NCBI GenBank assembly: GCA_043738945.1
Contig: JAYUFB010000080.1
Coordinates: 49,697 to 113,696, forward strand
Direction of reading: 5' to 3'
Length of the DNA stretch: 64,000 nucleotides
DNA from: Gammaproteobacteria bacterium
Lineage (GTDB): Bacteria; Pseudomonadota; Gammaproteobacteria; Steroidobacterales; Steroidobacteraceae
The notes beneath the pieces are model-generated. The model saw only the letters and a program-made list of their open reading frames with translations, was not told the DNA's origin and searched no databases. Position numbers and translations under genes: made by a program. Numbering within the stretch: the first letter of the stretch is position 1; every line of letters begins with the position of its first letter. Positions 18,356 to 55,074 of this stretch are shown here, piece by piece.

Positions 18356-18377
18356 GACTTAGTCCATCGACTTAGTC
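18356..18377 (-). promoter_or_regulatory. tandem 9-bp direct repeat upstream of the phd-vapC operon (candidate operator)
   Basis: GACTTAGTC-catc-GACTTAGTC lies 35-56 nt upstream of ATG 18321. TA antitoxins commonly autoregulate through repeats in this position. Confidence 0.3.
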
Positions 18378-18441
18378 AATAATAGCACTGGGTACGAAAA
18401 TGCACTACCTGCGGTCCGTGGCAACTGGCTAACTCGCCCCG

Positions 18442-19170: not shown

Positions 19171-19173
19171 CAG

Positions 19174-34932: not shown

Positions 34933-35199
34933 GTGGAGCATACCGTTAAAATCGCCAGTCCACTCCGCTCCTATGTCCACGGGGCGACTCAAGTGCGAGC
35001 CCAAGGTGATTCGTTGCAAGAGCTGCTCGCCGATTTAGAGCACGCCTATCCTGGCATGCGCTTTCGCATGATTGACGAACAAGAACGTATCCGACCGCAC
35101 ATTCGGATATTCGTCAATAGCGTCGAGGCTTTGACCCTCGATTTCGCGTTGCTCAAAGAGGATGTGATCCATCTAATTTGCGCATTAAGCGGTGGCTGA
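34933..35199 (+). CDS. MoaD/ThiS-family ubiquitin-like sulfur-carrier protein
   Basis: 88 aa ending in ..ALSGG followed by the stop, the C-terminal Gly-Gly of the beta-grasp carrier. GTG start 2 nt after the BNR gene stop. Confidence 0.8.
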   Translation: MEHTVKIASPLRSYVHGATQVRAQGDSLQELLADLEHAYPGMRFRMIDEQERIRPHIRIFVNSVEALTLDFALLKEDVIHLICALSGG

Positions 35200-35200
35200 A

Positions 35201-36340
35201 ATGCTATCGGCCAGCGAACGGGCTCGCTACAGTCGGCATTTATTGTTACCGGAAATCGGCAACGCGGGACAAGAAAAATTAAAGGCCGCACGAGTATTAA
35301 TTGTCGGAGCTGGAGGCCTAGGTTCACCTGCCGGCCTTTACCTAGCTGCCGCCGGTGTCGGCACTCTGGGGATAGTTGATCATGATCACGTCGAGATTTC
35401 GAATTTGCAACGGCAGATTCTATTTGATACATCATCACTGGGGTTCAGTAAGGCCACCGCAGCGCAAGCGCGCTTGAGCGCGCTAAATCCGGAAATTACG
35501 CTGCAAGCCCATGAAGTTAAATTACAGCCCGACAATGCAGTCGAGTTAATACAACCCTATGATTTGGTCGTGGACGGTAGCGATCGGCTAAGTACGCGCT
35601 ATCTGGTCAACGATGTCAGCGTGATACTGGGTAAATCTTTGGTGTCCGCTGCTATTCATCGATTCGAGGGGCAGGCGATGACCTACAAGCCCGCCCAGGG
35701 TCCCTGTTATCGTTGCCTATTCCCGGAATCGGCCGAAGTTGCGATTCCGAACTGCGCTGAGGCGGGCGTACTCGGAGTACTACCGGGAATTCTCGGCGCT
35801 CTACAAGCCACCGAAGCGCTCAAACTCATACTGGGAATCGGCGAGCCCCTGCTGGGCCGATTGCTAACTTTCGATGCATTAGCAATGCGTTGGCAGGAGT
35901 TTAAATTTTCCCGCCGTACCGATTGCGCCGTCTGTGGAGAGCACCCCTCTATTTGCAACGCGCAAGACAGCGCTGCCGCCGCAATCGATAGCTCGCACAC
36001 TAACATCACTCGACTAGGACCCGAGCAACTCCATAGCTTGATGAGCGAGTCTCGCACCGACCGGGCGGCCCCCCTCATCATTGACGTACGAGAGACCCAG
36101 GAATTTAGCGTCAGTCACATTGATGGCGCAATGAATATCCCTATGCAAGGTTTATCGCAGGGTTTAGTGGATATTCCGCTGACCAAAACTTTGGTGTTTG
36201 TCTGCTACAGTGGTGGACGCAGTCTAGCCGCTGGGAAATTGGCACTCGACATGGGCCGCAGCAAGGTCGCTCATTTAGAGGGAGGCATGATGGCGTGGGC
36301 GCGCGCCCGAAATCCACACATGATTGTCGCAGCACCTTAA
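35201..36340 (+). CDS. E1-like adenylyltransferase with a C-terminal rhodanese domain (MoeB/ThiF, MoeZ type)
   Basis: ERARYSRHLLLPEIG and GxGxxG (IVGAGGLGSPAGLYLAAAGVG). Zinc Cys pairs CYRC and CAVC. Rhodanese active-site loop VCYSGGRS. ATG lies 1 nt after the MoaD-like stop. Confidence 0.9.
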   Translation: MLSASERARYSRHLLLPEIGNAGQEKLKAARVLIVGAGGLGSPAGLYLAAAGVGTLGIVDHDHVEISNLQRQILFDTSSLGFSKATAAQARLSALNPEITLQAHEVKLQPDNAVELIQPYDLVVDGSDRLSTRYLVNDVSVILGKSLVSAAIHRFEGQAMTYKPAQGPCYRCLFPESAEVAIPNCAEAGVLGVLPGILGALQATEALKLILGIGEPLLGRLLTFDALAMRWQEFKFSRRTDCAVCGEHPSICNAQDSAAAAIDSSHTNITRLGPEQLHSLMSESRTDRAAPLIIDVRETQEFSVSHIDGAMNIPMQGLSQGLVDIPLTKTLVFVCYSGGRSLAAGKLALDMGRSKVAHLEGGMMAWARARNPHMIVAAP

Positions 36341-36382: not shown

Positions 36383-37495
36383 ATGGAATTATCCCTTCCC
36401 TCACGCGACTATCTCGACACTGAAGTATTCAAGCGCGAAGTTGCCTGTATTTTTTCGCGCGAATGGGTCGCTGTGTGCCGAGCAGAGGAAATTCCGGGCG
36501 CGGGCGACTGGCAGGTGGTCAATTTGGTGGGTGACAGCGTACTTATTGTGCGCGGTAAAGACGACCGGCTACGGGCCTTTTATAACGTCTGTCGTCATCG
36601 AGGCGCGCAGCTGTGCGCGCCTAAGAATGCAGCCCTAAAGCCGGGCCGGGCGGTATTACCCTCATCGGTGCTGGCCAACGGAAATATCCGCTGTCCTTAT
36701 CACGCCTGGACCTATGATGCTGAGGGCGCTCTCATTGGCGCGCCATTCCTTACCGATGACCCAGGGTTTAGGCGCGAAGATTTTTCCCTCTACCCCTTGA
36801 GATGTGAGATTTGGGGTGGTTTTGTATTCATACATGGCTCGCCCAAAGAAGCGAAGTCGCTCGCCAGCCAAATGACACAGGTGTTGGCGCGCATTGCCAA
36901 CTACCCATTGAAGGATATGCGTATCGGTCATCGCATGCGCTACGAGGTGGATGCTAATTGGAAAATTCTCTGCGAAAACTATAACGAGTGTTATCACTGC
37001 GGCCCGGTGCATCCAGAACTATGCCGTTTGGTGCCCGCCTTTCGCATGAAGGGCGGTGCCGACCTTGACTGGCAAGACGGGATTCCGCATCGCGAGGGAG
37101 CCTATACTTTCACCTGGAGCGGCACCACTCAACGTGCGCCATTCAAAGGCCTGAGCGAGGCGGAAAAAACCAAACACAAGGGTGAGCTGGTGTATCCGAA
37201 TTTATGGTTGAGCATGGCCTGCGACCACGTGACCGCTTACATCCTGCATCCTATTTCCGCCCATCGTACCGAAGTGGAATGTCTATTCTTGTTTGCCCAA
37301 GAAGAAATAGCGAAGTCCGATTTTGATCACACCGATGCCAGTACTTTTTGGGAGGTGACCAATCAACAAGATTGGGCCATTTGCGAGCGCGTTCAACAAG
37401 GCATTGCCTCCAGCCAGCATAAACAAGGGTACTACGCACCCATGGAAGATATGAATCTGGATATGCGGCGTTATATTCGCGAACGCATGAAGTGA
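36383..37495 (+). CDS. Rieske non-heme iron oxygenase, alpha subunit (GbcA/Stc2/choline-monooxygenase-like)
   Basis: Rieske ligands CRH..CPYH and a mononuclear iron region NYNECYHCGPVHPEL. GTGA overlap with the soxB-like gene. Confidence 0.88.
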   Translation: MELSLPSRDYLDTEVFKREVACIFSREWVAVCRAEEIPGAGDWQVVNLVGDSVLIVRGKDDRLRAFYNVCRHRGAQLCAPKNAALKPGRAVLPSSVLANGNIRCPYHAWTYDAEGALIGAPFLTDDPGFRREDFSLYPLRCEIWGGFVFIHGSPKEAKSLASQMTQVLARIANYPLKDMRIGHRMRYEVDANWKILCENYNECYHCGPVHPELCRLVPAFRMKGGADLDWQDGIPHREGAYTFTWSGTTQRAPFKGLSEAEKTKHKGELVYPNLWLSMACDHVTAYILHPISAHRTEVECLFLFAQEEIAKSDFDHTDASTFWEVTNQQDWAICERVQQGIASSQHKQGYYAPMEDMNLDMRRYIRERMK

Positions 37496-38766
37496 GGAGA
37501 TCCTCGCCTCATTATTCCGCGTGGTCACTAATTCGCGCGCGCATGAAGGGCGGCTATTGGCAACCTCTTTGGACCGGTCACAAACTGCAAGCAGCTTATG
37601 ACGTCGTCATCGTAGGAGCCGGTGGCCACGGTTTGGCGACCGCTTTTCACCTGGCACGCGATCACGGCATTAAGCGCATCGCTATTCTTGAGAAGCGCTT
37701 AGTGGGCTATGGCAACGTCGGGCGTAATACCACCATCGTGCGCTCTAATTATTTGTTACCTGAGAATCATTATTTTTACGAAGACTCGCTACGTCGCTGG
37801 GAAACGCTGTCGCACGATTTGAACTACAACGTGATGTACAGTCCGCGCGGCGTGGTTGATCTAGCACTCTCGGATGACGAAATGTCGGGTGCCGCACGTC
37901 GCGGCAACGCCATGCGCCTTGCCGGTATCGATGCCGAACTTCTCGATCGCGCAGCGTTAAAGCGCTTCTGTCCAGAGTTGGACACCGAGCGCGAGAGGCG
38001 ATTCCCTATTGTCGGTGCGTTGCTACAACGACGCGGCGGCACTGTACGCCATGATGCGGTGGCCTGGGGTTATGCACGCGCCGCGAGCGCACTCGGGGTC
38101 GATATTATCGAGGACTGCGAGGTCACCGGTGTACAGGCTGCGGCCGGGATAGCGAGCGGTGTCGACACCAGTCGCGGCTATGTTAAGGCCGAGCGCATCG
38201 TGTTTGCGACCGCCGGTCACACCGCCATGATCGGTACGATGCTCGGCGTACCCATGCCGATCGAGACGCATCTATTACAGGCTATGGTCACTGAGCCGAT
38301 TAAACCGTTGCTCAACACCGTGCTGGTGTATATGTATCCCGGTCACGGCGAAACTTATATCTGCCAATCCGATCGTGGCGGGTTAGTGATGGGCGGAATG
38401 CTCGATGGCTTTCCTTCCTACACCCGTGAAGGCCGATGGGATCGCATGGAAGACGTGGTGGAAGGCGCGGTCGAGTTACTCCCGCAAATCGCCGGCTGCA
38501 AAATTCTGCGCCATTGGGCGGGTACTAATGACATGACCATGGATGGTAGTCCCATCATGGATCGACTTCGCCATGACAATGTATTCGTCAATGCGGGTTG
38601 GTGCTACGGAGGATTCAAGGCCATCCCCGCCTCGGGTGCCGCGTTCGCCACGCTCGTCGCAACCGGTAGCGCACCGGATCTCATAAAAGCCTATCGCATG
38701 TCACGCTTTGCAACCGGCCACCTGCTCGACGAGCGTGGCGGCGGTCCTTTCCCGGTGCGCCTATGA
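37492..38766 (+). CDS. soxB: heterotetrameric sarcosine oxidase family, beta subunit (FAD)
   Basis: SoxB-type N-terminus (YSAWSLIR..W..LW) followed by YDVVIVGAGGHGLATAFHLA. The physiological substrate may not be sarcosine. Confidence 0.88.
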   Translation: MRRSSPHYSAWSLIRARMKGGYWQPLWTGHKLQAAYDVVIVGAGGHGLATAFHLARDHGIKRIAILEKRLVGYGNVGRNTTIVRSNYLLPENHYFYEDSLRRWETLSHDLNYNVMYSPRGVVDLALSDDEMSGAARRGNAMRLAGIDAELLDRAALKRFCPELDTERERRFPIVGALLQRRGGTVRHDAVAWGYARAASALGVDIIEDCEVTGVQAAAGIASGVDTSRGYVKAERIVFATAGHTAMIGTMLGVPMPIETHLLQAMVTEPIKPLLNTVLVYMYPGHGETYICQSDRGGLVMGGMLDGFPSYTREGRWDRMEDVVEGAVELLPQIAGCKILRHWAGTNDMTMDGSPIMDRLRHDNVFVNAGWCYGGFKAIPASGAAFATLVATGSAPDLIKAYRMSRFATGHLLDERGGGPFPVRL

Positions 38767-39020
38767 CGCTCGCAACACTACAGACCCGCTTAGTATGTCC
38801 TTTCTGCGGACCGAGACAATTGAGCGAATTCGTATTTCACAAGACTTTGCCCCCAGCGAATGCTTCCCGCTTCGCCAAGGTCTATGAGCGCATTGATACC
38901 CCGCACTTGAGTATCGAGCATTGGCAGCACGTCCGCGGCTGCCGTAGTTGGCTACGCGTGCACCGCAATCCATCGAGTGGCGCCGTTCTCGAAATAAATC
39001 TACTCAGCGCCGCCACATGA
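38763..39020 (+). CDS. soxD: sarcosine oxidase family, delta subunit
   Basis: 85 aa with LVCPFCGPRQLSEFVF and a later H..H..C zinc-site pattern. ATGA overlaps on both sides. Confidence 0.85.
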   Translation: MTLATLQTRLVCPFCGPRQLSEFVFHKTLPPANASRFAKVYERIDTPHLSIEHWQHVRGCRSWLRVHRNPSSGAVLEINLLSAAT

Positions 39021-41962
39021 GCGCTCGAGCAGGCACACGCGGCGTACGGATTGGAACACGAATCGCCAGCGAATCGATACGATTTAGTTTTGACGGCCAG
39101 GAGTACCTCGGCCAAGCCGGCGACACCGCCGCCTCCGCGTTACTCGCCAATGGTGTGCGCGCGATGGGCCGTAGTGTCAAGTACCGCAGGCTGCGCGGAC
39201 TACTCGCGGCAGGGCCCGAAGAGCCCAACGCGCTTTTGACCGTGGGCAATTTTCCTAATGTCATTCCCAATGTATCCGCGCCCCAATTGGTCTTGCGGAA
39301 CGGTATGATTTTACGTAGTCAGAATCGCTGGCCGAGTTTGAAGTTCGATGTAGCATCTTTGTTGCAAGCGGGCGGCGGCTTATTGGGTGCGGGCTTTTAC
39401 TACAAAACATTTATGTGGCCCTCTTGGAAAACCTACGAAAGACTAATCCGCAATCTAGCCGGTCTCGGTGAAGCACCAGGTGCGTGTACGCTGCCTCCTC
39501 CCAAAATAATGTATGCCAGTTGCGATGTGCTGATAGCAGGTGCCGGCCCTGCGGGACTTGCTGCTGCACTGGCTGCCGCCCGCAACGGCGCAAACGTGTG
39601 GCTGTTCGAGCGGGAACCTGCGGTAGGCGGCGAGCTGGAATTTGAAACGAGTGAAGTCGATGGCCTGCCAGCCCAGCAGTGGATTGCCGCAACACTCGCA
39701 GAACTAGCACAACGCGGCGCAAAGATATTCACCAACACGACCATCATGGGAGGCTCTAGCGATCTAATCATTGCACATCGAGAAGCGGGCGGAATTCCTG
39801 GGGACAACACGGTGTACCGCATAAACCCTCGCGCGATGGTGGCCGCTATGGGCGCGGTGGAACGACCCATTGCCTTTGCGGGTAATGATCGCCCCGGCGT
39901 CATGCTCATCAATGCCGCCGAGAAATACTTAGCTCGCTACGGCGTGAAAGTGGGCAGCGATCTGGTGCTATTTGCCAATCATGATCGTGTTTATGCCGCC
40001 GCCGCGCGCTTACAAGCCGGTGGCATGCGCATCCGCGCCATCATCGATACTCGCCGCACAGCCTCGGAAGCGATCCCCTTACGCGCCGATCTCATGCGTA
40101 GTGGAATCCATTGTTTACTGAATACGGCGGTTCTCGCTACGACAGGTCGCCAACGCATCACTGGGGTAAAAATCGCACCACTCGATGCGCCACACCAAGC
40201 ACGTATCCTACCCTGCGATACTGTTCTAGTTGGCGGCGGATGGTCGGCACCCACCCATCAATCGGCACAATCGCACTTCATCGCGGGTGCTGAACACGGC
40301 TGTCTCGAACTCAGCGCCGCCCTGAATGATGGGTATACGGCAGGCCGCACCGCCGCCGCCGTCGCCGGTAAAATGAACCTGCCCGGGGCTGCGCCTAGAG
40401 GCCACGGCGACATGACGCCCCAGCTCGTGCCCTTCTGGCGCTCACCCAGCGACCCCACTCGCGAAAAAAACCAATTCGTCGATTTGCAAAATGACGTCAC
40501 CGTAGCCGATCTGCGCGCCGCGCTTAGCGAAGGGTTTAACGACATTGAGCACGTGAAGCGTTACACCACCCTCGGTGTAGGTACCGAGCAAGGTCGCACC
40601 AGCGGCTTGCTGGGCGCAAGTATCGTGGCGGAATTGAAAGGCGAACTCCTCACACAGGTCGCCACAAGTCGCGCGCGTCCGCCTTATTATCCGATGACCT
40701 TAAGTTCGCTCGCGGGACTGCGCGTTGGCGCGGCGCTGCGACCGACCCGCAGGACAGCGCTGCATCAATGGCATGAATCGAACGGGGGTGTATTGGAGTC
40801 CACAGGCCTTTGGATGCGGCCTCGATACTATCGGGCGAATGGCCTGGACGCCTTCACCGCAGGGGTTGCGGAAGCTAAACGAGTGCGTAGCATCGGCGGC
40901 ATCATCGATAGCTCGACGCTGGGGAAAATCGAAGTGGTAGGCCCCAATGCGGCAGCCTTCCTCGATACGCTGTACCTCACCAAGGCTAGCACTATTAAAA
41001 TAGGCCGCAGTAAGTACATGGTGAATTTGCGCGAGGACGGCATGGTGTTGGACGACGGTATTGTGCTGCGTCTTGCAAGCAATCGATTCCTAGCTACGGT
41101 GAGCTCGGGACATGCCGAACATATGCTCTCGCACTTTGAGTACTACTGTGTTGAGGGGCACGATTCCGCGATTACGGGCGCTGCCGCGATTTCGCGGACC
41201 CGCGCGGTCTCAGTCACCGATGTGACGGAGAGTTGGTCGGTGATTGCAGTGGCTGGGGCCACCAGCCTAAGCGCTCTAGCCCAAGTCTTAGGCAACGAGT
41301 GGCAAACAAGCCTCGCGCAACTGTCGCATATGGATTTCGCACTAGGCGTATTCCAAGGTCGCGATATCAAGGTACTGCGCGCAAGCTTTTCGGGTGAGCT
41401 TGCATTCGAGTTGCATTGCCGCCCGGCCATTGCGCTCACGCTATGGGAAGGCCTGATTGCCGCCGGTCTTTCACCCTATGGGCTCGAAGCTCTCGATATT
41501 TTACGCGTGGAAAAAGGTTACTTGGTGAGTTCCGAGATCAACGGTCAAACCACTCCCTTTGATCTCGGCATGGACGGACTTGTTAAAATAGGCAATCACT
41601 GTGTGGGTCGCGAATTGCTCGATCGACCTGCGTTTCATGAAGCATCAAGGCCGCGCCTCGTGGGTCTTAAAGCAGTTGATGGTAAATCCAAATTTCTGGG
41701 CGGCGCGCAGCTACTCAGTACCTTATCGCCTCGTCCCTGCGGTCACGTGACTTCTACGGTTTATAGCCCGACCTTCAATGAATGGATCGGCTTAGGACTA
41801 GTCGCTCGAAATCTAGAGCTTGGCACCACCTTGATTGCCAAAGATCCACTGCGCAGCGGCAACACCCGAGTGCTATTGGTGCCCCCGGTGCACTTTGATC
41901 CGAGCGGTGCTCGGATGAAATCTGTGCAACAAACCCAAAGTAAATCCGCAGTACCGCCATGA
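39017..41962 (+). CDS. soxA: sarcosine oxidase family, alpha subunit (NAD/FMN and folate-binding GcvT-like domain)
   Basis: N-terminus FSFDGQEYLGQAGDTAASALLANGVRAMGRSVKYRRLRGLL..EEPNAL. Dinucleotide motif CDVLIAGAGPAGLAAAL. C-terminal aminomethyltransferase-like region. ATG 39017 overlaps the soxD stop. Confidence 0.9.
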   Translation: MSARAGTRGVRIGTRIASESIRFSFDGQEYLGQAGDTAASALLANGVRAMGRSVKYRRLRGLLAAGPEEPNALLTVGNFPNVIPNVSAPQLVLRNGMILRSQNRWPSLKFDVASLLQAGGGLLGAGFYYKTFMWPSWKTYERLIRNLAGLGEAPGACTLPPPKIMYASCDVLIAGAGPAGLAAALAAARNGANVWLFEREPAVGGELEFETSEVDGLPAQQWIAATLAELAQRGAKIFTNTTIMGGSSDLIIAHREAGGIPGDNTVYRINPRAMVAAMGAVERPIAFAGNDRPGVMLINAAEKYLARYGVKVGSDLVLFANHDRVYAAAARLQAGGMRIRAIIDTRRTASEAIPLRADLMRSGIHCLLNTAVLATTGRQRITGVKIAPLDAPHQARILPCDTVLVGGGWSAPTHQSAQSHFIAGAEHGCLELSAALNDGYTAGRTAAAVAGKMNLPGAAPRGHGDMTPQLVPFWRSPSDPTREKNQFVDLQNDVTVADLRAALSEGFNDIEHVKRYTTLGVGTEQGRTSGLLGASIVAELKGELLTQVATSRARPPYYPMTLSSLAGLRVGAALRPTRRTALHQWHESNGGVLESTGLWMRPRYYRANGLDAFTAGVAEAKRVRSIGGIIDSSTLGKIEVVGPNAAAFLDTLYLTKASTIKIGRSKYMVNLREDGMVLDDGIVLRLASNRFLATVSSGHAEHMLSHFEYYCVEGHDSAITGAAAISRTRAVSVTDVTESWSVIAVAGATSLSALAQVLGNEWQTSLAQLSHMDFALGVFQGRDIKVLRASFSGELAFELHCRPAIALTLWEGLIAAGLSPYGLEALDILRVEKGYLVSSEINGQTTPFDLGMDGLVKIGNHCVGRELLDRPAFHEASRPRLVGLKAVDGKSKFLGGAQLLSTLSPRPCGHVTSTVYSPTFNEWIGLGLVARNLELGTTLIAKDPLRSGNTRVLLVPPVHFDPSGARMKSVQQTQSKSAVPP

Positions 41963-42441
41963 GTCACGCGCTCTTCAATGATTTTTCCTGCCAATTGGAG
42001 GAAATGCCGTCTTCAAGGGATTATGAGTTCATTGCATTTGGCGAGGTAGCCGATGAAGGAGTGCCCGGTGAAAGCGGGCCAGGTGACTCGGCGTTGCTGC
42101 CCATCGCACCCGGCCGCTGGTTTGCGCCCTCTCCCGACGCCGCGGTGCAATCATTCCTTGAGGCTGCAATCCACGCAGATTCAGGCACCGTGATTGATAT
42201 CAGCGGCAAGTGGCACGCGATGACGCTCATCGGCAGCGGCGCGAGCCGCTTACTCGCCAGCAGCATCGACATCGAAGCCGTATTACACAACCGCTCCTGT
42301 GCCGCACTGGCGTTGTTCGACTGCCCCGCGATCGTCGCGCGCAAACCCACGGGATTTTCGATCTGGGTACACTCCAGCTACGCCGCTCATTTTGTGAGGG
42401 TCATTCAAGAGCTGGGGGCAAGTCTAATCGCGCGCAAATAG
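41959..42441 (+). CDS. soxG: sarcosine oxidase family, gamma subunit
   Basis: 160 aa in the fourth position of the soxBDAG order, with an ATGA overlap. The DISGKWHAMTLIGSGASRLL pattern is typical of SoxG. It is somewhat shorter than usual. Confidence 0.75.
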   Translation: MSHALFNDFSCQLEEMPSSRDYEFIAFGEVADEGVPGESGPGDSALLPIAPGRWFAPSPDAAVQSFLEAAIHADSGTVIDISGKWHAMTLIGSGASRLLASSIDIEAVLHNRSCAALALFDCPAIVARKPTGFSIWVHSSYAAHFVRVIQELGASLIARK

Positions 42442-42469: not shown

Positions 42470-42709
42470 CTAAAGCTTTAGATGCGTACCGTCGCACAAC
42501 GGTGCTTTGTGCGTGTGCTTGCATCCGCAAAAAAACACCGTGGTTGACTGCGACGCGGTATATTTCACCGGTGCGAATTCACTGCCCTTATGACTACCAT
42601 CACAAAACGGTTGTTTAGCGCTCTTGCCACAGGCGCACCAAAAGTAGATCTTACCCGCTTCAACCTCGACGGCGTAGGGACTCTTTTGGGCAATCGTCGG
42701 GCTTGTCAT
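42470..42709 (-). CDS. CDGSH iron-sulfur domain protein (two CDGSH motifs)
   Basis: CACGKSAKQPFCDGSH and CGCKHTHKAPLCDGTH. GGAGA Shine-Dalgarno sequence 7 nt before ATG 42709. Same strand as, and immediately downstream of, the GS-like gene. Confidence 0.88.
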   Translation of the reverse strand: MTSPTIAQKSPYAVEVEAGKIYFWCACGKSAKQPFCDGSHKGSEFAPVKYTASQSTTVFFCGCKHTHKAPLCDGTHLKL

Positions 42710-42760
42710 GTCAGCATCTCCGTGGCAAAGCATAGACCGTAGTTCGGACCCACTGCTGTG

Positions 42761-44044
42761 TCAAATATAATTAATGTAATAGTCTCTAAGGGCATCGCCT
42801 TGCAAGTTTTCGGTCTCTTTGATTTCCGCCCGCTTTATCGCCACATGGTTTGCCACCAAAGTGTCGCCCATGCATTTTACAAACACCTTGTCGGCTTCAA
42901 GCGCACTGAGCGCCGCACCGAGACTCTCAGGCACGCCCTCGGTGGCATCAGTTTGACTAAGACAATCGCCGGTCTCAGGTGGCGGGAGTTCATATTTTCC
43001 GGTGTGCCCCAACTTTGCCGCCTGCAGCACCGCCGCCACTAACACATAGGGATTGGACGCCGCATCGCCCATACGATGCTCAATACGCGCGCGGGTCCCA
43101 CCCTGTGCCGATATGCGAGTGGTGACCCCGCGATGATCGACGGCCCAGTTGCGCCAATAGCCCGACATTGACCCCGGTTTTAATCGCTGATAGGAATTAA
43201 CGGTCGGAGCCACCAGTGCGCACATCCCTTGGTGATGCCGCATCAGGCCAGCCACCGAACTGCGCGCAACTGGCGAAAGATTCGAGCCGTGGCCATCCGC
43301 AATCACGTTATGACCCGACGAGTCATTAAACGAGAAATTCACATGCAAACCGCTTCCTCCTTTATTGAGAATGGGCTTCGGCATAAAAGTCAGCAGCAAA
43401 CCATGTTCAAACGCCACTTCACGAGCCATTAACCGGAACAGAAAAGCGTCATCCACCGCTTGCAGCGCATCGTCATAGACAAGCGTAAACTCTAATTGCG
43501 GAGCGTCGAACTCTGAGGTCATGCATTCCACTTTGAAGCCGCGCGATTCCGCCCGATGCCAAAGGTTGTCGGTGAATCGGCGCGGATCACAAGCGGGTCC
43601 GGTGCTGTACACATAAGCACCCGGCGTGTCATACGGCGCTAACTTGCCTGCTTCGTTGCGCTCAAATACATAGGCCTCAAGCTCTAAGCCAACCTTGGGG
43701 TTAAACCCTAACGCACGCCATTCGTTCACTGTGCGCTTAAGCAATTGACGCCCACACATCGGCAGAGGCGATCCATCGGTTTCATTAAGATCCGCGATCA
43801 CCACCGACGTGTCCATTTCCCACCCAGCGCGTACATCAGCCGCGGTAAACACCGCGTCCATGTCGGGCATTCCCTGTAACATCTTAGTACCGGGGGCCGG
43901 AATTAAATCCTTGCCGTAAGTCAGTGCATAGGTCGCCTGAGCAAATCGCGAGGCACCCCCACTTTTCTTGGAGGCGGGAAGGTATTTACCGCGCGCCAGA
44001 TTCAAATGATCACAAAATAATAATCTGAGTCGCTCATCAGCCAC
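42761..44044 (-). CDS. glutamine synthetase-like gamma-glutamyl-amine ligase (PuuA/GmaS/IpuC-like)
   Basis: 427 aa with a GS catalytic domain (KVGLELEAYVF, FDAPQLEFTL, MPKPILNKGGSGLHVNFS, NSYQRL, RIEHRMGDAASNPY). The N-terminal domain is short, as in amine-ligating GS paralogues. Confidence 0.85.
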   Translation of the reverse strand: MADERLRLLFCDHLNLARGKYLPASKKSGGASRFAQATYALTYGKDLIPAPGTKMLQGMPDMDAVFTAADVRAGWEMDTSVVIADLNETDGSPLPMCGRQLLKRTVNEWRALGFNPKVGLELEAYVFERNEAGKLAPYDTPGAYVYSTGPACDPRRFTDNLWHRAESRGFKVECMTSEFDAPQLEFTLVYDDALQAVDDAFLFRLMAREVAFEHGLLLTFMPKPILNKGGSGLHVNFSFNDSSGHNVIADGHGSNLSPVARSSVAGLMRHHQGMCALVAPTVNSYQRLKPGSMSGYWRNWAVDHRGVTTRISAQGGTRARIEHRMGDAASNPYVLVAAVLQAAKLGHTGKYELPPPETGDCLSQTDATEGVPESLGAALSALEADKVFVKCMGDTLVANHVAIKRAEIKETENLQGDALRDYYINYI

Positions 44045-45319: not shown

Positions 45320-45412
45320 GTTGACTTAACCCCCCTCTACCCAGAGCACGAATAACGCGCTTCAGAATATCATTGCATTGACAACGAAACAAACAGATCT
45401 AAGATAGTAAGT

Positions 45413-46114
45413 ATGAGCCACCGAATTGCCGTACTACTCACCAGTAATGACGAATCCGCTTTTGCCAAGCGCTTCCCTAACGACGGCGAAAAGGTAATTA
45501 CGCTGCTGCGCGCTCTGAGACCGGATTGGTCCTATCGAGTATGGTCAGTGAAGGACGGCGAATTCCCCTCAAGCACCGACGCAGACGGGTACATCATCAC
45601 AGGTAGCCCCGCCTCGGTACACGACCCGCTGGATTGGATAGCGCGCTTAACTGCCCTGATCTGCGAGCTGCATAGCCGACGGGCACCTTTAGTGGGGCTT
45701 TGCTTCGGTCATCAAGCCATTGCGCTAGCGCTCGGCGGTCGGGTTGAGAAAAGCCCCGGCGGTTGGCGTATGGGAATCGCTGCAACTCATTTTTCTAAAA
45801 AGTTACCCTGGATGGCACCCTACCACCCCACCCTCGAGCTATACGCATCGCATTCCGAGCAAGTCACTCAACTCCCGGCCACCGCTCAACGCCTCGGAGG
45901 CGATGACTTCTGCCCGATCGCTTCCTTCGTTTTAGACCAACACATCATGACTACGCAGTACCATCCAGAGTTCTCGCCCACCTTTATGTCGGAACTGACT
46001 GATGTACTAGTGCGGAAACTGCCCGCCGAAGTCATTGCACAAGCTCGCGAGGAACTAAAACGGGAAGCGCAAGGCGAAGTATTTGCCCAATGGATGGTGA
46101 AATTTTTGGAATGA
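45413..46114 (+). CDS. class-I glutamine amidotransferase-fold protein (candidate gamma-glutamyl-amide hydrolase)
   Basis: Nucleophile elbow GLCFGHQAIA and the His-Glu pair in QYHPE. It is a stand-alone 233-aa protein with no synthase domain. Divergent from the P450 operon with a 93-nt spacer. Confidence 0.8.
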   Translation: MSHRIAVLLTSNDESAFAKRFPNDGEKVITLLRALRPDWSYRVWSVKDGEFPSSTDADGYIITGSPASVHDPLDWIARLTALICELHSRRAPLVGLCFGHQAIALALGGRVEKSPGGWRMGIAATHFSKKLPWMAPYHPTLELYASHSEQVTQLPATAQRLGGDDFCPIASFVLDQHIMTTQYHPEFSPTFMSELTDVLVRKLPAEVIAQAREELKREAQGEVFAQWMVKFLE

Positions 46115-46136: not shown

Positions 46137-47093
46137 CTAATATTGCTGACGCTGGTAGTTAACCGCCTCGCGGAACACATGCGCATGAAGCTGTGCGGTG
46201 CGCACCCGCGATTCAGCATAACCACCCGCCAATACAATAACCAACGGAATCCCGCGAGCGCGCACCGCCTCAATCACAGCACGATCACGGCTACTTATTC
46301 CCTGCTCAGTCAGTTTAAGTTTACCGTAACGATCACCCGCCGCGACGTCGACCCCCGCGAGGTAAAACACAATCTCAGGTTGACTCTCAAGCACAGCTGG
46401 CAAATGGCCGTGCAGGCTATCAAGATATGCGGCATCGCCGACACCACTGGGCAATGCTATATCGAGGCAAGAGCGCATTTTACGGGCGGGATAGTTCTGC
46501 TCGCCGTGCATTGAGAAGCTTAATACCTGGCCCACCCCTTCGAAAATAGCCGCAGTGCCATTACCTTGGTGGACATCAAGATCGATAATGGCTGCGCGGT
46601 CAATGAGTCCTTCCGCACGCAATTGAGTGATGGCAATAGCAACATCGTTCAGCACACAAAAACCCTCGCCGTGGTCAGCAAAGGCATGATGAGTCCCGCC
46701 TGCCAAGTTAGCAGCAAGACCTAACTTTAACGCCGTGCGCGCTGCTAGCAAGGTACCCCCAGCCGCAAGACGCGAACGCAACCATAGAGACTCCGACCAC
46801 GGAAAGCCCAGCAGTCGTTGCTCAGCCAAAGAAAGCTGAGAAGACTCTAATTTATCAAGGTACTCAGGAGTATGCACCTGTTCCAAAATCCACCTTTCGA
46901 GCGGCTCAGGAACCATCAAATCACCAGGGTGCAACACGCCTTCCGTCAATAGGAGTTCCATGAGCAATGGATATTTACTCATGGGGAAAGGATGCTGCGG
47001 TGAAAGCCCCAGTTGATATCCCGGGTGATAGCAATAACGCAAGCCGTGGCCCAGACCACTATTTAGGCTGAAATTCAGAAAATTTACTCTCAT
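46137..47093 (-). CDS. histone deacetylase-family amidohydrolase (acetylpolyamine/acetoin-utilisation type)
   Basis: GGTHHAFADHGEGFCVLND, IIDLDVHQGNG and YLAGVD motifs of the arginase/deacetylase fold. Confidence 0.88.
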   Translation of the reverse strand: MRVNFLNFSLNSGLGHGLRYCYHPGYQLGLSPQHPFPMSKYPLLMELLLTEGVLHPGDLMVPEPLERWILEQVHTPEYLDKLESSQLSLAEQRLLGFPWSESLWLRSRLAAGGTLLAARTALKLGLAANLAGGTHHAFADHGEGFCVLNDVAIAITQLRAEGLIDRAAIIDLDVHQGNGTAAIFEGVGQVLSFSMHGEQNYPARKMRSCLDIALPSGVGDAAYLDSLHGHLPAVLESQPEIVFYLAGVDVAAGDRYGKLKLTEQGISSRDRAVIEAVRARGIPLVIVLAGGYAESRVRTAQLHAHVFREAVNYQRQQY

Positions 47094-47226: not shown

Positions 47227-47472
47227 ATGACAGTACAAGTTATCGTCACACCCAACGGCCGAATGATTCTGCCATCCGGCATCCGCAAGCGTCTTGGCCT
47301 GTCGGGTGGCGGAGCCTTGTTGGTCGAAGAGACGCCCCATGGCGTAGTTCTGCGAACAGTGGGTCAGTCGATCGCTCATGCCCAAGCCTTGGCGCGAAAA
47401 TACACGTCCGGCAAGGCGGGTACATCAGTTGATGCATTTCTAACGAACCGGGTCGTAGAGAGTGGCGAATGA
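47227..47472 (+). CDS. vapB: AbrB/MazE/SpoVT-family antitoxin (VapB)
   Basis: The looped-hinge-helix signature VIVTPNGRMILPSGIRKRLGLSGGGALLVEETPHGVVLR. ATGA overlap with the PIN toxin gene. Confidence 0.88.
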   Translation: MTVQVIVTPNGRMILPSGIRKRLGLSGGGALLVEETPHGVVLRTVGQSIAHAQALARKYTSGKAGTSVDAFLTNRVVESGE

Positions 47473-47858
47473 CCGAAGTCATTCTAGATGCTTCAGCACT
47501 CCTGGCCCTGCTAAAGAATGAACCCGGCGGTGCAAAAGTAGCAGAAGTCGTGATGTCGTCGCGCATGAGTGCGGTTAATTACGCCGAGGTAGTCAGCCAT
47601 TTCATTCACGCCGGAATGCCCGCCCCCGAGGTAGATGCAATGCTCGATCCTTTACCCATGACCTTGGTCGAAGCGGATGCAGATCTCGCGCGTATCGCCG
47701 GTCGATTACGTTTAATTACCTCAAATGCGGGTCTATCGCTGGGGGATCGGTTCTGCCTGGCCCTCGCCGCACGCGATGGACTTCCCGCCTGGACCGCCGA
47801 CAGAAAATGGCGGAGCGTGGCAGAAGCAGCAGGGGTAGTTGTCGTCGTCATCCGATAA
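47469..47858 (+). CDS. vapC: PIN-domain toxin, VapC family
   Basis: ILDASALLALL, NYAEVVS, GLSLGDRFCLALA and WTAD acidic-residue pattern of PIN domains. Confidence 0.88.
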   Translation: MTEVILDASALLALLKNEPGGAKVAEVVMSSRMSAVNYAEVVSHFIHAGMPAPEVDAMLDPLPMTLVEADADLARIAGRLRLITSNAGLSLGDRFCLALAARDGLPAWTADRKWRSVAEAAGVVVVVIR

Positions 47859-47948: not shown

Positions 47949-48497
47949 TTACGTACTGAGGCCGATGTAATACACCATGTTGTCCGCGGGCCGGACCAGA
48001 ATCAGATCGACCGCCGAAGGATCCGTACCGTAGTATTTAATGCTCCACAGATAAACGTAGTATGTTTGATTTCGGATATCAGCTGCAGGAGGAAACCAAG
48101 GAATATCACTTGAATTTCGCGCCGTCTCCGCGAACCCGACTGCGTCGTCAATGACCATGGGAAGCTGATCGCCGCGATGCCAACCGCCTCTCTTCGTCGA
48201 AGGCAATTCTGATGGCGAGACATGGGAAATCTTTATTGCATATGCGTCCAGATGATCACCGCCGAGCGATCGGGCAGTGACGTGACTGTGCATTACACTG
48301 ATGAAGCGCTTGTCACCAAGCGCGCACCAGTTCAACACAAACCGCACGTCTTTAAACGTAGCAGCACCGTTCGGCTGATCGGCATACGTCACGTGTTTGA
48401 AGGCAACGAATCCAATAATGGCCAGTACACCGATTAGCGATATCGCGCCCCAAGCGAGCAGGCTGCGTACCAGAAATATCCTTATCAATGCGCTCAT
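47949..48497 (-). CDS. membrane-anchored hypothetical protein
   Basis: N-terminal TM (LLAWGAISLIGVLAIIGFVAF) followed by a soluble domain of about 140 aa. No family recognised. Confidence 0.5.
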   Translation of the reverse strand: MSALIRIFLVRSLLAWGAISLIGVLAIIGFVAFKHVTYADQPNGAATFKDVRFVLNWCALGDKRFISVMHSHVTARSLGGDHLDAYAIKISHVSPSELPSTKRGGWHRGDQLPMVIDDAVGFAETARNSSDIPWFPPAADIRNQTYYVYLWSIKYYGTDPSAVDLILVRPADNMVYYIGLST

Positions 48498-48763
48498 ACC
48501 GACACCTTGCCATTTTGCTGAAAGGAGTCGTCCCTCCTTGCACCATCCAATCGTATCAGTTTACAAACGTCGGCTTTCGGTGGACCATTTTTACGGAATG
48601 AGTGTCCGAGTTTGGTCGACCACGTCGAAAAGCGACAGATATCCGGCGGACAAACTCGCCATATACAGTTTAACCCGACAAGGCAATGTCGGATAGATAA
48701 AATCCTAGCCTGCACAAAAACCACAGAATCTCGCCCTGTGCGACTTTTCGCCAGCTGCGCGTT

Positions 48764-49828
48764 CTACTCGCGCCGTGTTTGCAGCCCTTCCTCAACAATC
48801 GCCTTTTCCAGCATACTGCGAAAACTCGCTAAGGCCGTGTCCATCCGCATCGCCAACATGGGCGCATCCGGTTCAAGATCCAAAATTCTCTGTTGCGCCA
48901 AAATAATATCCTTATCTTCCATGAACCCAGCCAACACGCTCGTGGTTAAGTTCTCGGTAACCTTAGGGTCATCTAGTGCAAAACCATGCGATTGCTGAAA
49001 AAAGTAATGCGAAGTCTTCTCAGTCTCCGGCGTCACTGCCTGACAACCAAAAAACGACGCCGCATCGACACGATTGCCCTCGGGCGCACCGGTGCCCGTC
49101 GCCGCACTCCCCGAATCCATGAGTAGCACCCCCGGCAGTACCACATCATAAATATTCCACCGATCAACATTGCCAGGCCAAGTTTTCAAATTACGCAAAA
49201 AAGGTGCCGGTTCATCATCAATCAGCCAGCGCTCGACGCGCACACTCCGCCCTTTGCGCGTCACCTTGGGCCGAGTACCCGCATATTTAGCCGAGCCGCC
49301 TAAAGTTGTAGCGTGCACATAGGACAGGTGCGAGAAATCCAACAGATTATCAGTGATCAAAACGTAGTTAGCGTTGTAATGCAGGTACCCGGGCGTGCCG
49401 CGCCAACCGGGATCATCCAAATAATGAGTATCGGGAATGAGCGAAGCATCCGCCTTTTCAGGTTCACCCATCCAAATCCACACCCACTTGAATCGCTCAA
49501 CCACGGGAAAGGCTCGAACTTTAGCGGCCGGCGGAATAAATTCCTGTGAAGGAATCTCAACGCATTGGCCCAATGAGTTAAACAGCAACCCGTGATACAT
49601 ACAACGGATGCAATCACCCTCACGCCGCCCCTTGGAGAGCGGCGCCGCACGATGACAGCAACGATCCAATAACGCCACAACGTGGCCATCACGGTCGCGC
49701 CACAATATCAACGGCACGCGAGTAATAGTACGTGCCAGCATTCCCTCCGACTCGATCTCATGCGACCACGCCGCCACATACCAAGTATTTTTAAGAAATG
49801 TAGTACTAGAAGCGGTGGCGGTACTCAT
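48764..49828 (-). CDS. Rieske oxygenase, VanA/phthalate-family oxygenase component
   Basis: Rieske motif CCHRAAPLSKGRREGDCIRCMYHG with canonical spacing. Iron site region DNLLDFSHLSYVH. No reductase gene is nearby. Confidence 0.85.
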   Translation of the reverse strand: MSTATASSTTFLKNTWYVAAWSHEIESEGMLARTITRVPLILWRDRDGHVVALLDRCCHRAAPLSKGRREGDCIRCMYHGLLFNSLGQCVEIPSQEFIPPAAKVRAFPVVERFKWVWIWMGEPEKADASLIPDTHYLDDPGWRGTPGYLHYNANYVLITDNLLDFSHLSYVHATTLGGSAKYAGTRPKVTRKGRSVRVERWLIDDEPAPFLRNLKTWPGNVDRWNIYDVVLPGVLLMDSGSAATGTGAPEGNRVDAASFFGCQAVTPETEKTSHYFFQQSHGFALDDPKVTENLTTSVLAGFMEDKDIILAQQRILDLEPDAPMLAMRMDTALASFRSMLEKAIVEEGLQTRRE

Positions 49829-52124: not shown

Positions 52125-52168
52125 CAAACTTGTTTCATTGTCAACAAACTTGTCTTTAAGGACAAGTT
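52125..52168. promoter_or_regulatory. AACTTGTC-N6-GACAAGTT palindrome plus an upstream CAAACTTGT half-site in the TonB receptor / marR divergent region
   Basis: Perfect 8-bp inverted arms at 52147-52154 and 52161-52168. An additional direct copy of CAAACTTGT lies at 52125-52133. The position and symmetry fit a MarR-type operator. Confidence 0.45.
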
Positions 52169-52298
52169 ATCAGGCTACCTGTGGTTTAGGCACCACGGAT
52201 TCAGACTGTTACCCCACGCCATTAACCGAAGCGGCGCGACAAGCATCGACGTGGTAATCTTTTTGTCTCTGCAAAAAGGGATAAAGGGAATTATAGAA

Positions 52299-52796
52299 AT
52301 GCTTAGAGCCGCAAAGAAAAAGACCAGCGCGCGTCCGCACGTTAAACGCGCAGCTTTGGGGCCCATCGGCAAGTTGGAAGACTTTATACCGTACAAGCTG
52401 TCCGTGGTCGCGAATCGTCTATCTCAGTCTATCGGCCGCCTTTTCGAAGCCCAATTCAACATTCAAATGCCTGAATGGCGCATTTTGATGGCCCTCTATG
52501 CATACGATCACTTAGTCTTTAACGAAGTCGTGGAGCGAACCAGCATGGATAAAGCGCGGGTCTCCCGGGCCCAACGCCGCTTGGTGGACTTAAGCCTAGT
52601 GAAGTCGGTCAACGATCCCAGCGATGGACGCAAGGTGATACTCTCGTTGACGCTAAAAGGCGAGCGAATGTGCGCCAATATTCTTCCCGAAGCGGCCAAA
52701 CGCGAAGCCTGGTACTTAGCCGCGCTTGATGACCACGAACACAGCCAGCTCGACATAATCTTGGACAAGCTCATGAAACGCAGTCTGGAGGCCTGA
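52299..52796 (+). CDS. MarR-family transcriptional regulator
   Basis: Winged-helix core (PEWRILMALYAYDHLVFNEVVERTSMDKARVSRAQRRLVDLSLV..DPSDGRKVILSLT). ATG 52299 has an AAGGGA Shine-Dalgarno sequence. Confidence 0.88.
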   Translation: MLRAAKKKTSARPHVKRAALGPIGKLEDFIPYKLSVVANRLSQSIGRLFEAQFNIQMPEWRILMALYAYDHLVFNEVVERTSMDKARVSRAQRRLVDLSLVKSVNDPSDGRKVILSLTLKGERMCANILPEAAKREAWYLAALDDHEHSQLDIILDKLMKRSLEA

Positions 52797-52891
52797 ACCA
52801 CCGCGAGCGGCGCGGCGGCTGCGGTGCGTTGCTCCCCGACATTCCAATCGTTGACAATGAAACAATCAGGCTGCATGATTTTAACTACCCT

Positions 52892-54325
52892 ATGGCCTAC
52901 CCCACGCTTAAGCTGCTCATAGACGGTCAATGGATAGAACAAACTTCTAGTACTTTGGCCGTCCACAATCCGGCCACGGGCGAGGTACTGGGGCAACTCC
53001 CGGCAGCCGAGCCCGAGCACATTGAGCAAGCGGCAAAGGCCGCCGCCAAGAGCTTTCCAGCGTGGGCTGCCATGGGACCGCATGAGCGCTGCGCAATCAT
53101 TGCAAGGGCCACCGCACTCATTCGTGAACGCGCCACCAGCATCGCGGAAATCCTTACTCTGGAACAAGGTAAGCCGCTCGCTGAGTCAAAACGTGAAGTC
53201 ATGCTGTCCGCTGACATTATCGACTTTTTAGCCGAAGAATCACGACGTTTAGCGAGCCGTGGCGTACCGGCGCGCTCCTCAAACATCCTCAGCCAAACTG
53301 TGCAACGCGTACCGGTTGGGCCGGTTGCTGCTTTTACGCCCTGGAATTTCCCCGCTAGTTTGCCTGCACGAAAGCTGGGCGGCGCGCTCGCTGCCGGTTG
53401 CACGGTGGTGATTAAGCCTGCGGAAGAAACGCCTGCAACCTGCCTAGAATTAGCGCGCGCTTTTGTTGATGCGGGAATTCCGCCCGGAGTGCTCAATGTG
53501 GTGTGCGGCAATCCTGCCGCCATTGCAAGCGCACTGATTGCTCACCCCGGAATTGCCAAGATATCGTTTACCGGTTCAGTCCCGGTGGGGCGAATGTTGG
53601 GTGAAATGGCCGCAAGACATTTGAAGCGTTTCGCCGCCGAACTCGGCGGCCACGCCGCACTAATCGTATGCTCGGATGTCGACGCGGCACATGTGGCTGC
53701 ACTCGCGGCCACGGCTAAATTTCGTAACGCTGGACAAGTATGTACCGCGCCAATTCGATTCTTAGTGCACAAGGCCGTATACCAAACCTTTCGCTATGCC
53801 TTCATTAGCGCTGCGAATGCTATTAAAATAGGCAATGGTCTAGAACCCGGAGTCCAGCTCGGTCCCTTAATCCACGAACGACGCTTAGCCGCGATGCAAG
53901 GCTTCGTTGACGACGCCAAACAGCACGGCGGCAAGGTATTGTGCGGTGGCCTTAAGCTCGATCGTCCAGGGCTTTTCTATCCGCCCACCGTGCTCGAACG
54001 TGTCCCGTTCAGCGCCCGCGCGCAGCGCGAAGAACCCTTCGGCCCACTCGCATTACTGGATGAGTTTGAAGATTTAGATGCCGCCATTACCCAAGCCAAC
54101 GCACTGAATTACGGGCTAGCCGCTTACGCCTTTACCCGCGATTTGGCGCAAGCGCACCGACTTGCGCACTCGCTCAATGCGGGCATGGTCGGCATTAATC
54201 ATTTCGGCGTATCGCAACCGGAGACACCGTTCGGCGGCATTAAAGATAGCGGCACCGGCAGCGAAAGCGGCTTAGAGGGCTTACTGGGCTACACCGATGT
54301 TAAATTTGTAAGCATGGCCTCGTGA
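52892..54325 (+). CDS. NAD(P)-dependent aldehyde dehydrogenase (succinate-semialdehyde dehydrogenase-like)
   Basis: Catalytic Glu (AAELGGHA) and Cys (FRNAGQVCTAP), plus FTGSVPVG and PFGGIKDSG motifs. Confidence 0.92.
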   Translation: MAYPTLKLLIDGQWIEQTSSTLAVHNPATGEVLGQLPAAEPEHIEQAAKAAAKSFPAWAAMGPHERCAIIARATALIRERATSIAEILTLEQGKPLAESKREVMLSADIIDFLAEESRRLASRGVPARSSNILSQTVQRVPVGPVAAFTPWNFPASLPARKLGGALAAGCTVVIKPAEETPATCLELARAFVDAGIPPGVLNVVCGNPAAIASALIAHPGIAKISFTGSVPVGRMLGEMAARHLKRFAAELGGHAALIVCSDVDAAHVAALAATAKFRNAGQVCTAPIRFLVHKAVYQTFRYAFISAANAIKIGNGLEPGVQLGPLIHERRLAAMQGFVDDAKQHGGKVLCGGLKLDRPGLFYPPTVLERVPFSARAQREEPFGPLALLDEFEDLDAAITQANALNYGLAAYAFTRDLAQAHRLAHSLNAGMVGINHFGVSQPETPFGGIKDSGTGSESGLEGLLGYTDVKFVSMAS

Positions 54326-55059
54326 CTAACCTCTCGTCCGCTTCACGGCTGACACCCACCACCGCAATGATCGACCCACCGGGCGCTGGCCGCTCAGATG
54401 TCACACCGCGGGCCTTATTGCTGGATTTTGGCAGCGTCATAAGCGTCTCCGCCTTTGAAAGACACCGACAAACCGAACGCATTTTAAACTTACCCGTAGG
54501 CTCGCTCACGTGGCAAGGTCCCCTCGACCCCGACACCGACGCACTTTGGACCCGCATGCAGCGCGATGAAATCACCGAACGCGAGTACTGGGCCATTCGC
54601 GCGCGTGAACTAGGCCGAGCGGTGGGCGAACACGACTGGGATATTCCTAAGATGATCACGCGCATGCGCCAATCCGATCCTAATGCAGTGGTTCGCCCAG
54701 AGATGCAGCGCCTCATTCGGTTGACGCGCGCCGCCGGGATCAAAGTAGCAGTACTCTCCAATGAATTTGAACTGTTTTATGGGGTTGATATAGCCAAACG
54801 TATTGACGTCATGCAGGGCATGGATGCAGTTATCGATGCCACCCACACCAAAATACTCAAACCTGATTTACGCGCCTATACATTAGCGTTAGAAGCATTG
54901 CAGTGCGATGCTCGTGAAGTGTTATTTGTCGATGATCAATTTCGCAATGTCGCGGGCGCAATTCGCGCGGGACTGCAAACGCAATTTTTTGATTTGCGCG
55001 ACGTCAACGGCAATATTGCCGCGATTGCGGCTCGCCTCAAACTAAACCTTTGCAGCTAA
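54322..55059 (+). CDS. HAD-superfamily hydrolase
   Basis: Motif I LLLDFGSVI, motif II VLSNE and motif III/IV K..(L)FVDD. 4-nt overlap with the ALDH gene. Confidence 0.75.
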   Translation: MTNLSSASRLTPTTAMIDPPGAGRSDVTPRALLLDFGSVISVSAFERHRQTERILNLPVGSLTWQGPLDPDTDALWTRMQRDEITEREYWAIRARELGRAVGEHDWDIPKMITRMRQSDPNAVVRPEMQRLIRLTRAAGIKVAVLSNEFELFYGVDIAKRIDVMQGMDAVIDATHTKILKPDLRAYTLALEALQCDAREVLFVDDQFRNVAGAIRAGLQTQFFDLRDVNGNIAAIAARLKLNLCS

Positions 55060-55074
55060 AATGCGTAGCGACCC

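Follow-up and report, generated by a model that had tools for sequence, protein, structure and literature searches.

The 64-kb stretch of gammaproteobacterial DNA analysed here, referred to as the window, carries on its minus strand a cytochrome P450 operon whose last gene encodes a small iron-sulphur (Fe-S) protein with two CDGSH motifs. The P450 (44057-45319, -) is of class I, contains the motif FGQGGAHVCLG and is closest to CYP125, CYP124 and CYP268 among solved structures. Only 12 nucleotides (nt) downstream and on the same strand starts the gene for a glutamine synthetase (GS)-like gamma-glutamyl ligase resembling PuuA and IpuC (42761-44044, -; Gln-synt_C, 1.6e-75), which scores below all NCBIfam equivalog cut-offs, including those for GlnA and for gamma-glutamylputrescine synthetase. 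The tandem-CDGSH gene (42470-42709, -) follows the stop codon of the GS-like gene after a spacer of 51 nt (42710-42760, -), in which no promoter-like or terminator-like site is predicted, and it is probably co-transcribed with the P450 operon. Being the last minus-strand gene after the P450 and the GS-like gene, it converges with a soxG-like gene (41959-42441, +) that marks the end of the operon. At the opposite end, a control region (45320-45412) with an operator-like 13-mer, GTTTCGTTGTCAA, at 45378-45390 separates the P450 from the divergent gene of a class I glutamine amidotransferase (GATase)-fold protein (45413-46114, +), a putative gamma-glutamyl-amide hydrolase similar to IpuF and PuuD. 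The description of the CDGSH protein in the original prediction, which had been made from the letters of the window, as a chain of roughly 80 residues encoded by the last gene of the P450 operon is therefore accurate.

The longest open reading frame (ORF) of the CDGSH gene reaches an ATG at 42733, and the translation of this minus-strand ORF (42470-42733) holds two complete CDGSH motifs, CACGKSAKQPFCDGSH and CGCKHTHKAPLCDGTH. Most likely, however, the true start is the second ATG at 42709, resulting in a protein of 79 amino acids (aa), as supported by a GGAG 8 nt upstream in the spacer, by the substitution pattern and by the alignment of homologues. In a comparison of the window with its closest relative, L001, all six changes in the eight codons preceding the ATG at 42709 are nonsynonymous, whereas the 79 codons from there on display a ratio of nonsynonymous to synonymous substitution (dN/dS) of 0.11. 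Homologues from other genomes align from residue 9-11 onwards. The gene is intact and, as judged from these substitutions, under purifying selection.

The ORF matches the Pfam family zf-CDGSH in two stretches (E 1.5e-17). Its best match among solved structures is 3TBN (residues 7-85, about 65% identical, E 1.8e-31), which is the type 6 CISD with tandem motifs from Magnetospirillum magneticum (Lin et al. 2011, PMC3174974); human CISD3/MiNT (6AVJ, E 2.9e-19) ranks second. The type 6 motif form C-X-C-X2-(S/T)-X3-P-X-C-D-G-(S/A/T)-H is present twice in one short chain. The eight ligands, C25/C27/C36/H40 and C61/C63/C72/H76 when numbered along the 79 aa, are all intact and agree with the positions listed for bacterial MiNT in Table 1 of PMC6006223, where the second His is printed as 67, which we take as a misprint for 76. 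The protein is predicted to bind two redox-active [2Fe-2S] clusters and is a MiNT-like member of an already known family, the type 6 CISD proteins, encoded by a single gene among the approximately 3,300 of this genome. What is new is its gene context.

Relatives of the P450 number 277 in the species-representative genome collection. The best 80 (64-94% identity; mostly from Rhodobacterales and Hyphomicrobiales, some from Burkholderiales) were examined together with eight additional metagenome loci found with the GS-like protein, yielding 88 loci, of which 77 are readable past GS. All orthologous loci with DNA extending as far as GS contain the P450-GS pair. About 80% of the 88 loci also encode a GATase homologue, which in most cases is divergent from the P450, and aldehyde dehydrogenase, aminotransferase and HAD gene families recur in the orthologous loci as well. 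Directly after GS, 56 of the 77 readable loci carry the gene for an adrenodoxin-type Fer2 ferredoxin of 103-105 aa, which starts 7-101 nt (median 14 nt) behind the ligase gene. Neither carrier follows GS in 20 loci, and a CDGSH gene does so in a single one, L001; in the eight metagenome loci neither a CDGSH protein nor a ferredoxin is encoded after GS. The CDGSH gene of the window thus indeed sits where a P450 ferredoxin is expected, as originally stated, but in 56 loci the same P450-GS pair is accompanied by a conventional ferredoxin and by no CDGSH gene, an outcome that the original prediction had itself named as speaking against its proposal.

Linkage of CDGSH to the P450-GS pair is found in three closely related genomes, namely the window's own, G041 (locus L001) and G042 (locus L217), which share an identical gene order as far as soxG and soxA, including the convergent layout of the soxG-like and CDGSH genes. 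Since the arrangement recurs in both of these relatives, it is not an assembly artefact. The next-closest lineage found is represented by two metagenome contigs (L207 and L214; P450 80% and GS 78% identical). Here, the operon stops at GS; about 250 nt without coding sequence separate it from a convergent gene of the GcvT family, and neither a ferredoxin nor a CDGSH gene is present. On the basis of this lineage and of the 20 loci devoid of a carrier in cis, we conclude that trans-encoded carriers commonly serve this P450 family.

The genome of the window encodes candidates for such carriers outside the window itself. Within the 64 kb, genome-wide profile scans revealed no Fer2 gene, no Pyr_redox_2 gene of the ferredoxin reductase (FdR) type and no NAD_binding_1 gene of the ferredoxin-NADP reductase (FNR) type except for a match to the SoxA-like protein; flavodoxins were not covered by a profile search. 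A motif scan of all ORFs of at least 40 aa found no other small Fe-S protein in the window. The CDGSH protein has no Fer2 match, and its sequence contains CDGSH motifs only and not the ferredoxin pattern Cx5Cx2Cx(36-37)C. A 76-aa ORF (48494-48724) gave a loose Fer4-like Cys pattern match; its translation is not ferredoxin-like, and the candidate was rejected. In these respects the original prediction is borne out: no ferredoxin or ferredoxin reductase gene was detected by these scans in the window, its only small Fe-S gene is that of the CDGSH protein, and family matches confirm the P450 as well as two Rieske oxygenases, one GbcA-like (36383-37495, +) and one VanA-like (48764-49828, -).

On another contig, C71:18368-19624 encodes a 418-aa flavoprotein with Pyr_redox_2 and Reductase_C domains that outscores all other proteins of the genome in the Pyr_redox_2 scan. 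The next gene follows without a gap and encodes a Fer2 ferredoxin of 105 aa, which shares 44% identity with the ferredoxins found in the orthologous operons. According to the translations of the neighbours, the C71 pair (18368-19941) stands alone between a glnB-like and a pyruvate-carboxylase-like gene. Whole-genome searches identified the flavoprotein in both other CDGSH-linked genomes (86% and 95% identical), and the ferredoxin is likewise present in both (90% and 97%). A second stand-alone Fer2 ferredoxin is encoded on C111. The sole FNR-type reductase of the genome is encoded on C9. It has 322 aa and a Fer2 domain, is of the VanB/GbcB type and is the obvious candidate donor for the two Rieske oxygenases. 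There are two P450 genes in the genome, the second of which (C76:4025-5320) encodes 431 aa. Its gene shows translational coupling to that of a 653-aa protein, identified by inspection of the sequence as a fatty-acyl-AMP ligase fused to a carrier protein (C76:2067-5320); the unit has no adjacent redox partner and may be a lipid or natural-product module.

Orthologues of the P450 of the window were found in none of 40 relatives, 24 of them from the same genus. CDGSH homologues (50-73% identity) occur in about 16 of these 24 genomes, and at least 16 same-genus genomes have an orthologue of the C71-type ferredoxin (60-68% identity). Since the genus conserves the C71 pair but is largely devoid of this P450, the pair appears to serve other acceptors as well. 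We infer that the P450 module was acquired horizontally and recently; the simplest history would be that it entered a lineage already having a usable FdR-ferredoxin pair and the CDGSH gene family.

The CDGSH family is extensive and highly conserved. A scan with its pattern returned at least 600 matches, and the best 80 loci (61-75% identity), spanning Pseudomonadota, Acidobacteriota, Verrucomicrobiota and other phyla, were inspected. The original prediction had suggested counting how often CDGSH genes neighbour P450 genes across genomes; none of these 80 loci encodes a P450-GS pair, an FdR-type reductase or an adrenodoxin-type ferredoxin within 6 kb, and only one has an unrelated P450 fragment, 5.7 kb from the CDGSH gene. 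No neighbouring gene family is common to more than about one-eighth of the loci. Ruegeria alba has its P450-GS-ferredoxin cluster (L041) and its CDGSH gene (L096) on separate contigs. The family profile is that of a general-purpose small protein and not of a dedicated oxygenase partner, as indicated by the absence of both P450, FdR or ferredoxin linkage and a fixed neighbour among these best 80 loci. In a maximum-likelihood tree of 98 CDGSH homologues, the pair formed by the window and L001 groups neither with the stand-alone copies of the same genus nor with those of alphaproteobacteria. Comparison of 17-20 kb around the CDGSH homologue in each of four genomes of the same genus revealed no neighbour in common with the window. 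Tandem-CDGSH modules are also found fused at the N terminus of a 355-aa bicupin and of a 507-512-aa protein with a Glu_synthase flavin mononucleotide (FMN) domain, in genomes of the same genus (L169, L171, L173, L174 and L176) and of the same order (L177 and L185). Such fusions are suggestive of electron input into these enzymes through their CDGSH modules.

Copies of an operator-like sequence link the P450 operon to genes further right in the window. The 13-mer GTTTCRTTGTCAA occurs at 45378-45390 (-), 52132-52144 (+) and 52851-52863 (-), that is, between the P450 and GATase genes, ahead of a gene of the MarR family (52251-52796, +) and where the adjacent aldehyde dehydrogenase gene starts. 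Three exact copies were observed versus 0.14 expected, and the 3.5-Mb genome contains no other. These copies suggest a single MarR-controlled regulon comprising the P450/GATase promoter region, the MarR gene, whose product is the candidate regulator of the island, and a row of genes that by family matches encode an aldehyde dehydrogenase, a HAD hydrolase, a class III aminotransferase and an amino-acid permease (52829-57852, +). The 13-mer was not found upstream of the C71 FdR-ferredoxin pair, nor was any operator common to the P450 promoter region and the C71 upstream region.

With slightly better than even confidence, we favour the interpretation that the P450 receives its electrons from the resident FdR-ferredoxin pair, that the module arrived by horizontal transfer without a ferredoxin, and that the CDGSH protein is a co-transcribed neighbour with a general MiNT-like function. 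According to this model, the horizontally acquired genes would constitute an Ipu-like amine-catabolic module of three parts: the GS-like ligase would gamma-glutamylate an amine, the class I P450 would hydroxylate the glutamylated amine, and the divergently transcribed GATase-fold hydrolase would remove the glutamyl tag. In this lineage the module would lack the adrenodoxin-type ferredoxin that most orthologous operons have after GS, and electrons would pass from NAD(P)H to the putidaredoxin-reductase-type flavoprotein, on to the acidic [2Fe-2S] ferredoxin of the C71 pair and finally to the P450. The CDGSH gene would be read through from the operon promoter, but its product would not be an obligatory P450 reductant.

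Several observations weigh against this model. The CDGSH gene occupies the ferredoxin slot on the same strand, 51 nt from GS, although it is the sole CDGSH gene of about 3,300; we estimate that a rearrangement would produce such a placement by chance in no more than about 1% of cases. This argument is weakened by the fact that a scan of many windows will turn up rare coincidences. Purifying selection has furthermore maintained the arrangement in three genomes (dN/dS 0.11). With no copy of the island operator ahead of it, the resident C71 pair is probably not induced with the P450, whereas the CDGSH gene probably is. Finally, the fusions to redox enzymes hint that CDGSH modules may serve as built-in electron carriers.

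An alternative to which we attribute a modest chance is that the function of the CDGSH protein is linked to the island but is not that of a P450 reductant, and that the protein instead donates or repairs [2Fe-2S] clusters or buffers iron or reactive oxygen. Such assistance would matter upon induction of an uncoupling-prone P450, two Rieske oxygenases and the SoxA-like protein, and the locus is rich in [2Fe-2S] enzymes. Co-orientation and probable co-transcription of the CDGSH gene with the operon are in agreement with this role, and the lack of a fixed neighbour in the CDGSH family fits a general helper. Cluster transfer and repair are documented for eukaryotic NEET proteins (PMC6006223, PMC9737848); in contrast, no function has been demonstrated for a bacterial CDGSH protein in PMC3174974 and PMC5859297, and two evolutionary surveys of CDGSH domains give neither a bacterial function nor a gene context. 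Moreover, the linkage is restricted to one lineage.

The role originally proposed for the CDGSH protein, that of a dedicated electron shuttle for the P450, would imply that it has displaced the operon ferredoxin. Electrons would then flow from an FdR-type flavoprotein via CDGSH to the P450, with the CDGSH protein delivering both electrons or, in a b5-like manner, acting on the second electron only or as an effector. We consider this improbable in view of the orthologous loci, the charge of the protein, the C71 pair and the neighbours of the CDGSH family. It is hard to accept as chance that the gene has taken the same slot as the ferredoxin in 56 orthologous loci, with tight spacing and no predicted terminator, and that it is conserved there in three genomes with a dN/dS of 0.11. 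Yet this is the case in one narrow lineage only, and none of the 80 nearest CDGSH loci lies beside a P450 or FdR gene. Likely co-induction through the shared operator, which the C71 pair lacks, would suit a carrier encoded in the operon, but the canonical FdR-ferredoxin pair is retained in all three genomes and 20 orthologous loci need no cis-encoded carrier at all. Even though the modules fused to the FMN Glu_synthase domain and to the bicupin in relatives lend such a role some plausibility, no CDGSH-P450 couple was found in the literature searched, where full-text matches were confined to papers on eukaryotic NEET proteins and ferroptosis.

The physical properties of the protein also speak against displacement. 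Class I P450s bind acidic ferredoxins on their basic proximal face. The 55 slot ferredoxins have a median isoelectric point (pI) of 4.2 and a median net charge of -12 at pH 7, and the C71 ferredoxin is likewise acidic (pI 4.6, net charge -6 at pH 7), whereas the CDGSH protein is basic (pI 8.8, net charge +3.8 at pH 7) and, as calculated from its sequence, does not offer the acidic surface of a class I P450 ferredoxin. A switch of partner would therefore be expected to leave changes on the basic face of the P450, and none were found there. At 22 positions the CDGSH-linked P450s differ from residues with at least 85% conservation among the ferredoxin-linked orthologues. These substitutions are mostly conservative and leave all basic residues of the putative helix-C and Cys-loop/L-helix regions in place; the two regions were assigned from sequence motifs and not from a structure. 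Unchanged are R102, R104, K107 and R111 in helix C as well as R353, R357, R376, R380, R388 and R389 in the Cys-loop/L-helix, all at positions that are basic in 82-100% of the ferredoxin-linked orthologues.

A similar argument applies to the redox potential. Class I ferredoxins have potentials near -240 mV, with a typical range of about -200 to -300 mV, and a value of 0 mV is roughly 200-300 mV above them. The clusters of mitoNEET display a potential of about 0 mV at pH 7.5 (PMC9737848). Since the potentials of known CDGSH clusters, as exemplified by this value for mitoNEET and not for the protein of the window, exceed those of class I ferredoxins, the first electron transfer from CDGSH to the P450 would be unfavourable. 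A b5-like contribution to the second electron or an effector role would be thermodynamically acceptable even at 0 mV. That the CDGSH ORF is nonfunctional, either a decaying remnant or a chance ORF, is suggested by its small size only and has a negligible probability, as the sequence is conserved, with eight intact ligands, a Pfam match of E 1.5e-17, 65% identity to 3TBN, a dN/dS of 0.11 and a Shine-Dalgarno sequence.

The genes around the P450 operon complete the picture of the locus. To its left, genes for SoxB-, SoxD- (assigned by position only), SoxA- and SoxG-like proteins of a heterotetrameric oxidase follow the GbcA-like Rieske oxygenase. This stretch (36383-42441, +) resembles a module for the demethylation of N-methyl-amines or betaine, converges on the P450 operon and has the same layout in L001 and L217. 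Just upstream of it lies a gene for a MoeB/ThiF-type adenylyltransferase with a C-terminal rhodanese domain, similar to MoeZ (35192-36340, +). On the other side, the GATase gene is adjoined by a gene of the histone-deacetylase family that may be of the acetylpolyamine amidohydrolase type (46137-47093, -), and further to the right two class III aminotransferases, a class II aldolase and a solute-binding protein are encoded. Together, these genes suggest a polyamine or amine catabolic island. Within it, an 81-aa ORF without a family match overlaps the start of a gene for a 129-aa PIN-domain protein (47227-47858, +), and the two look like an inserted toxin-antitoxin pair of the VapBC type.

Bacterial CDGSH proteins are widespread and lack an assigned function, and the choice of redox partner limits the use of P450s in biocatalysis. 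Displacement of the ferredoxin, if true, would provide the first physiological role for a bacterial CDGSH protein and at the same time a new class of P450 redox partner. The ordinary outcome, with a carrier acting in trans and CDGSH as a passenger, is likely, and would turn the locus into a cautionary case: being the only Fe-S gene nearby is weak evidence of partnership unless the whole genome and the orthologous loci are checked. Irrespective of the outcome, nature has performed an experiment in which the same operon carries a ferredoxin, nothing or a CDGSH protein in one position, making a three-way biochemical comparison possible.

The closest described counterpart of the module is the Ipu isopropylamine pathway of Pseudomonas sp. 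KIE171 and of plasmids of Arthrobacter aurescens TC1, which likewise combines the ligase IpuC, a multicomponent P450 and an amidotransferase-fold hydrolase. With its clustered core trio of GS-like ligase, P450 and GATase-fold hydrolase, the window module is, by gene content, Ipu-like. By analogy, its enzymes may gamma-glutamylate an alkylamine and hydroxylate the resulting amide. An aldehyde dehydrogenase and an amino-acid permease encoded nearby are a further point of resemblance. In the annotated clusters of A. aurescens TC1, IpuC, the P450 and the amidotransferase are accompanied by a ferredoxin and a ferredoxin reductase (PMC6776027). Ipu clusters thus encode their own redox chain, whereas the window module encodes neither component and carries CDGSH instead. 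The GATase/P450-GS-ferredoxin clusters of Rhodobacterales and Hyphomicrobiales, such as those of Ruegeria alba (L041) and Gellertiella hungarica (L003), share 64-75% identity with the window in the P450, 50-65% in the GS-like protein and 40-59% in the GATase. Most have the same divergent layout, with a few having the GATase gene on the same strand or lacking it. They carry an acidic Fer2 ferredoxin after GS, in contrast to the basic CDGSH protein found there in the lineage of the window.

The C71 pair in turn shares the two-gene design of putidaredoxin reductase and putidaredoxin, a 418-aa FdR followed by a 105-aa Fer2 ferredoxin with a pI of 4.6. Unlike the redox chain of class I P450s, however, it adjoins neither of the two P450 genes of the genome. 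The CDGSH protein itself closely resembles MmCISD of Magnetospirillum magneticum (PDB 3TBN), a monomeric type 6 tandem-motif CISD, and human MiNT/CISD3 (6AVJ), both of which have about 80 aa, two CDGSH motifs and identical ligand positions. The single copy per genome, a trait of type 6 CISD proteins (Lin et al. 2011, PMC3174974), holds true here as well. What distinguishes the gene of the window from those of MmCISD and MiNT is its attachment to the 3' end of a P450 operon.

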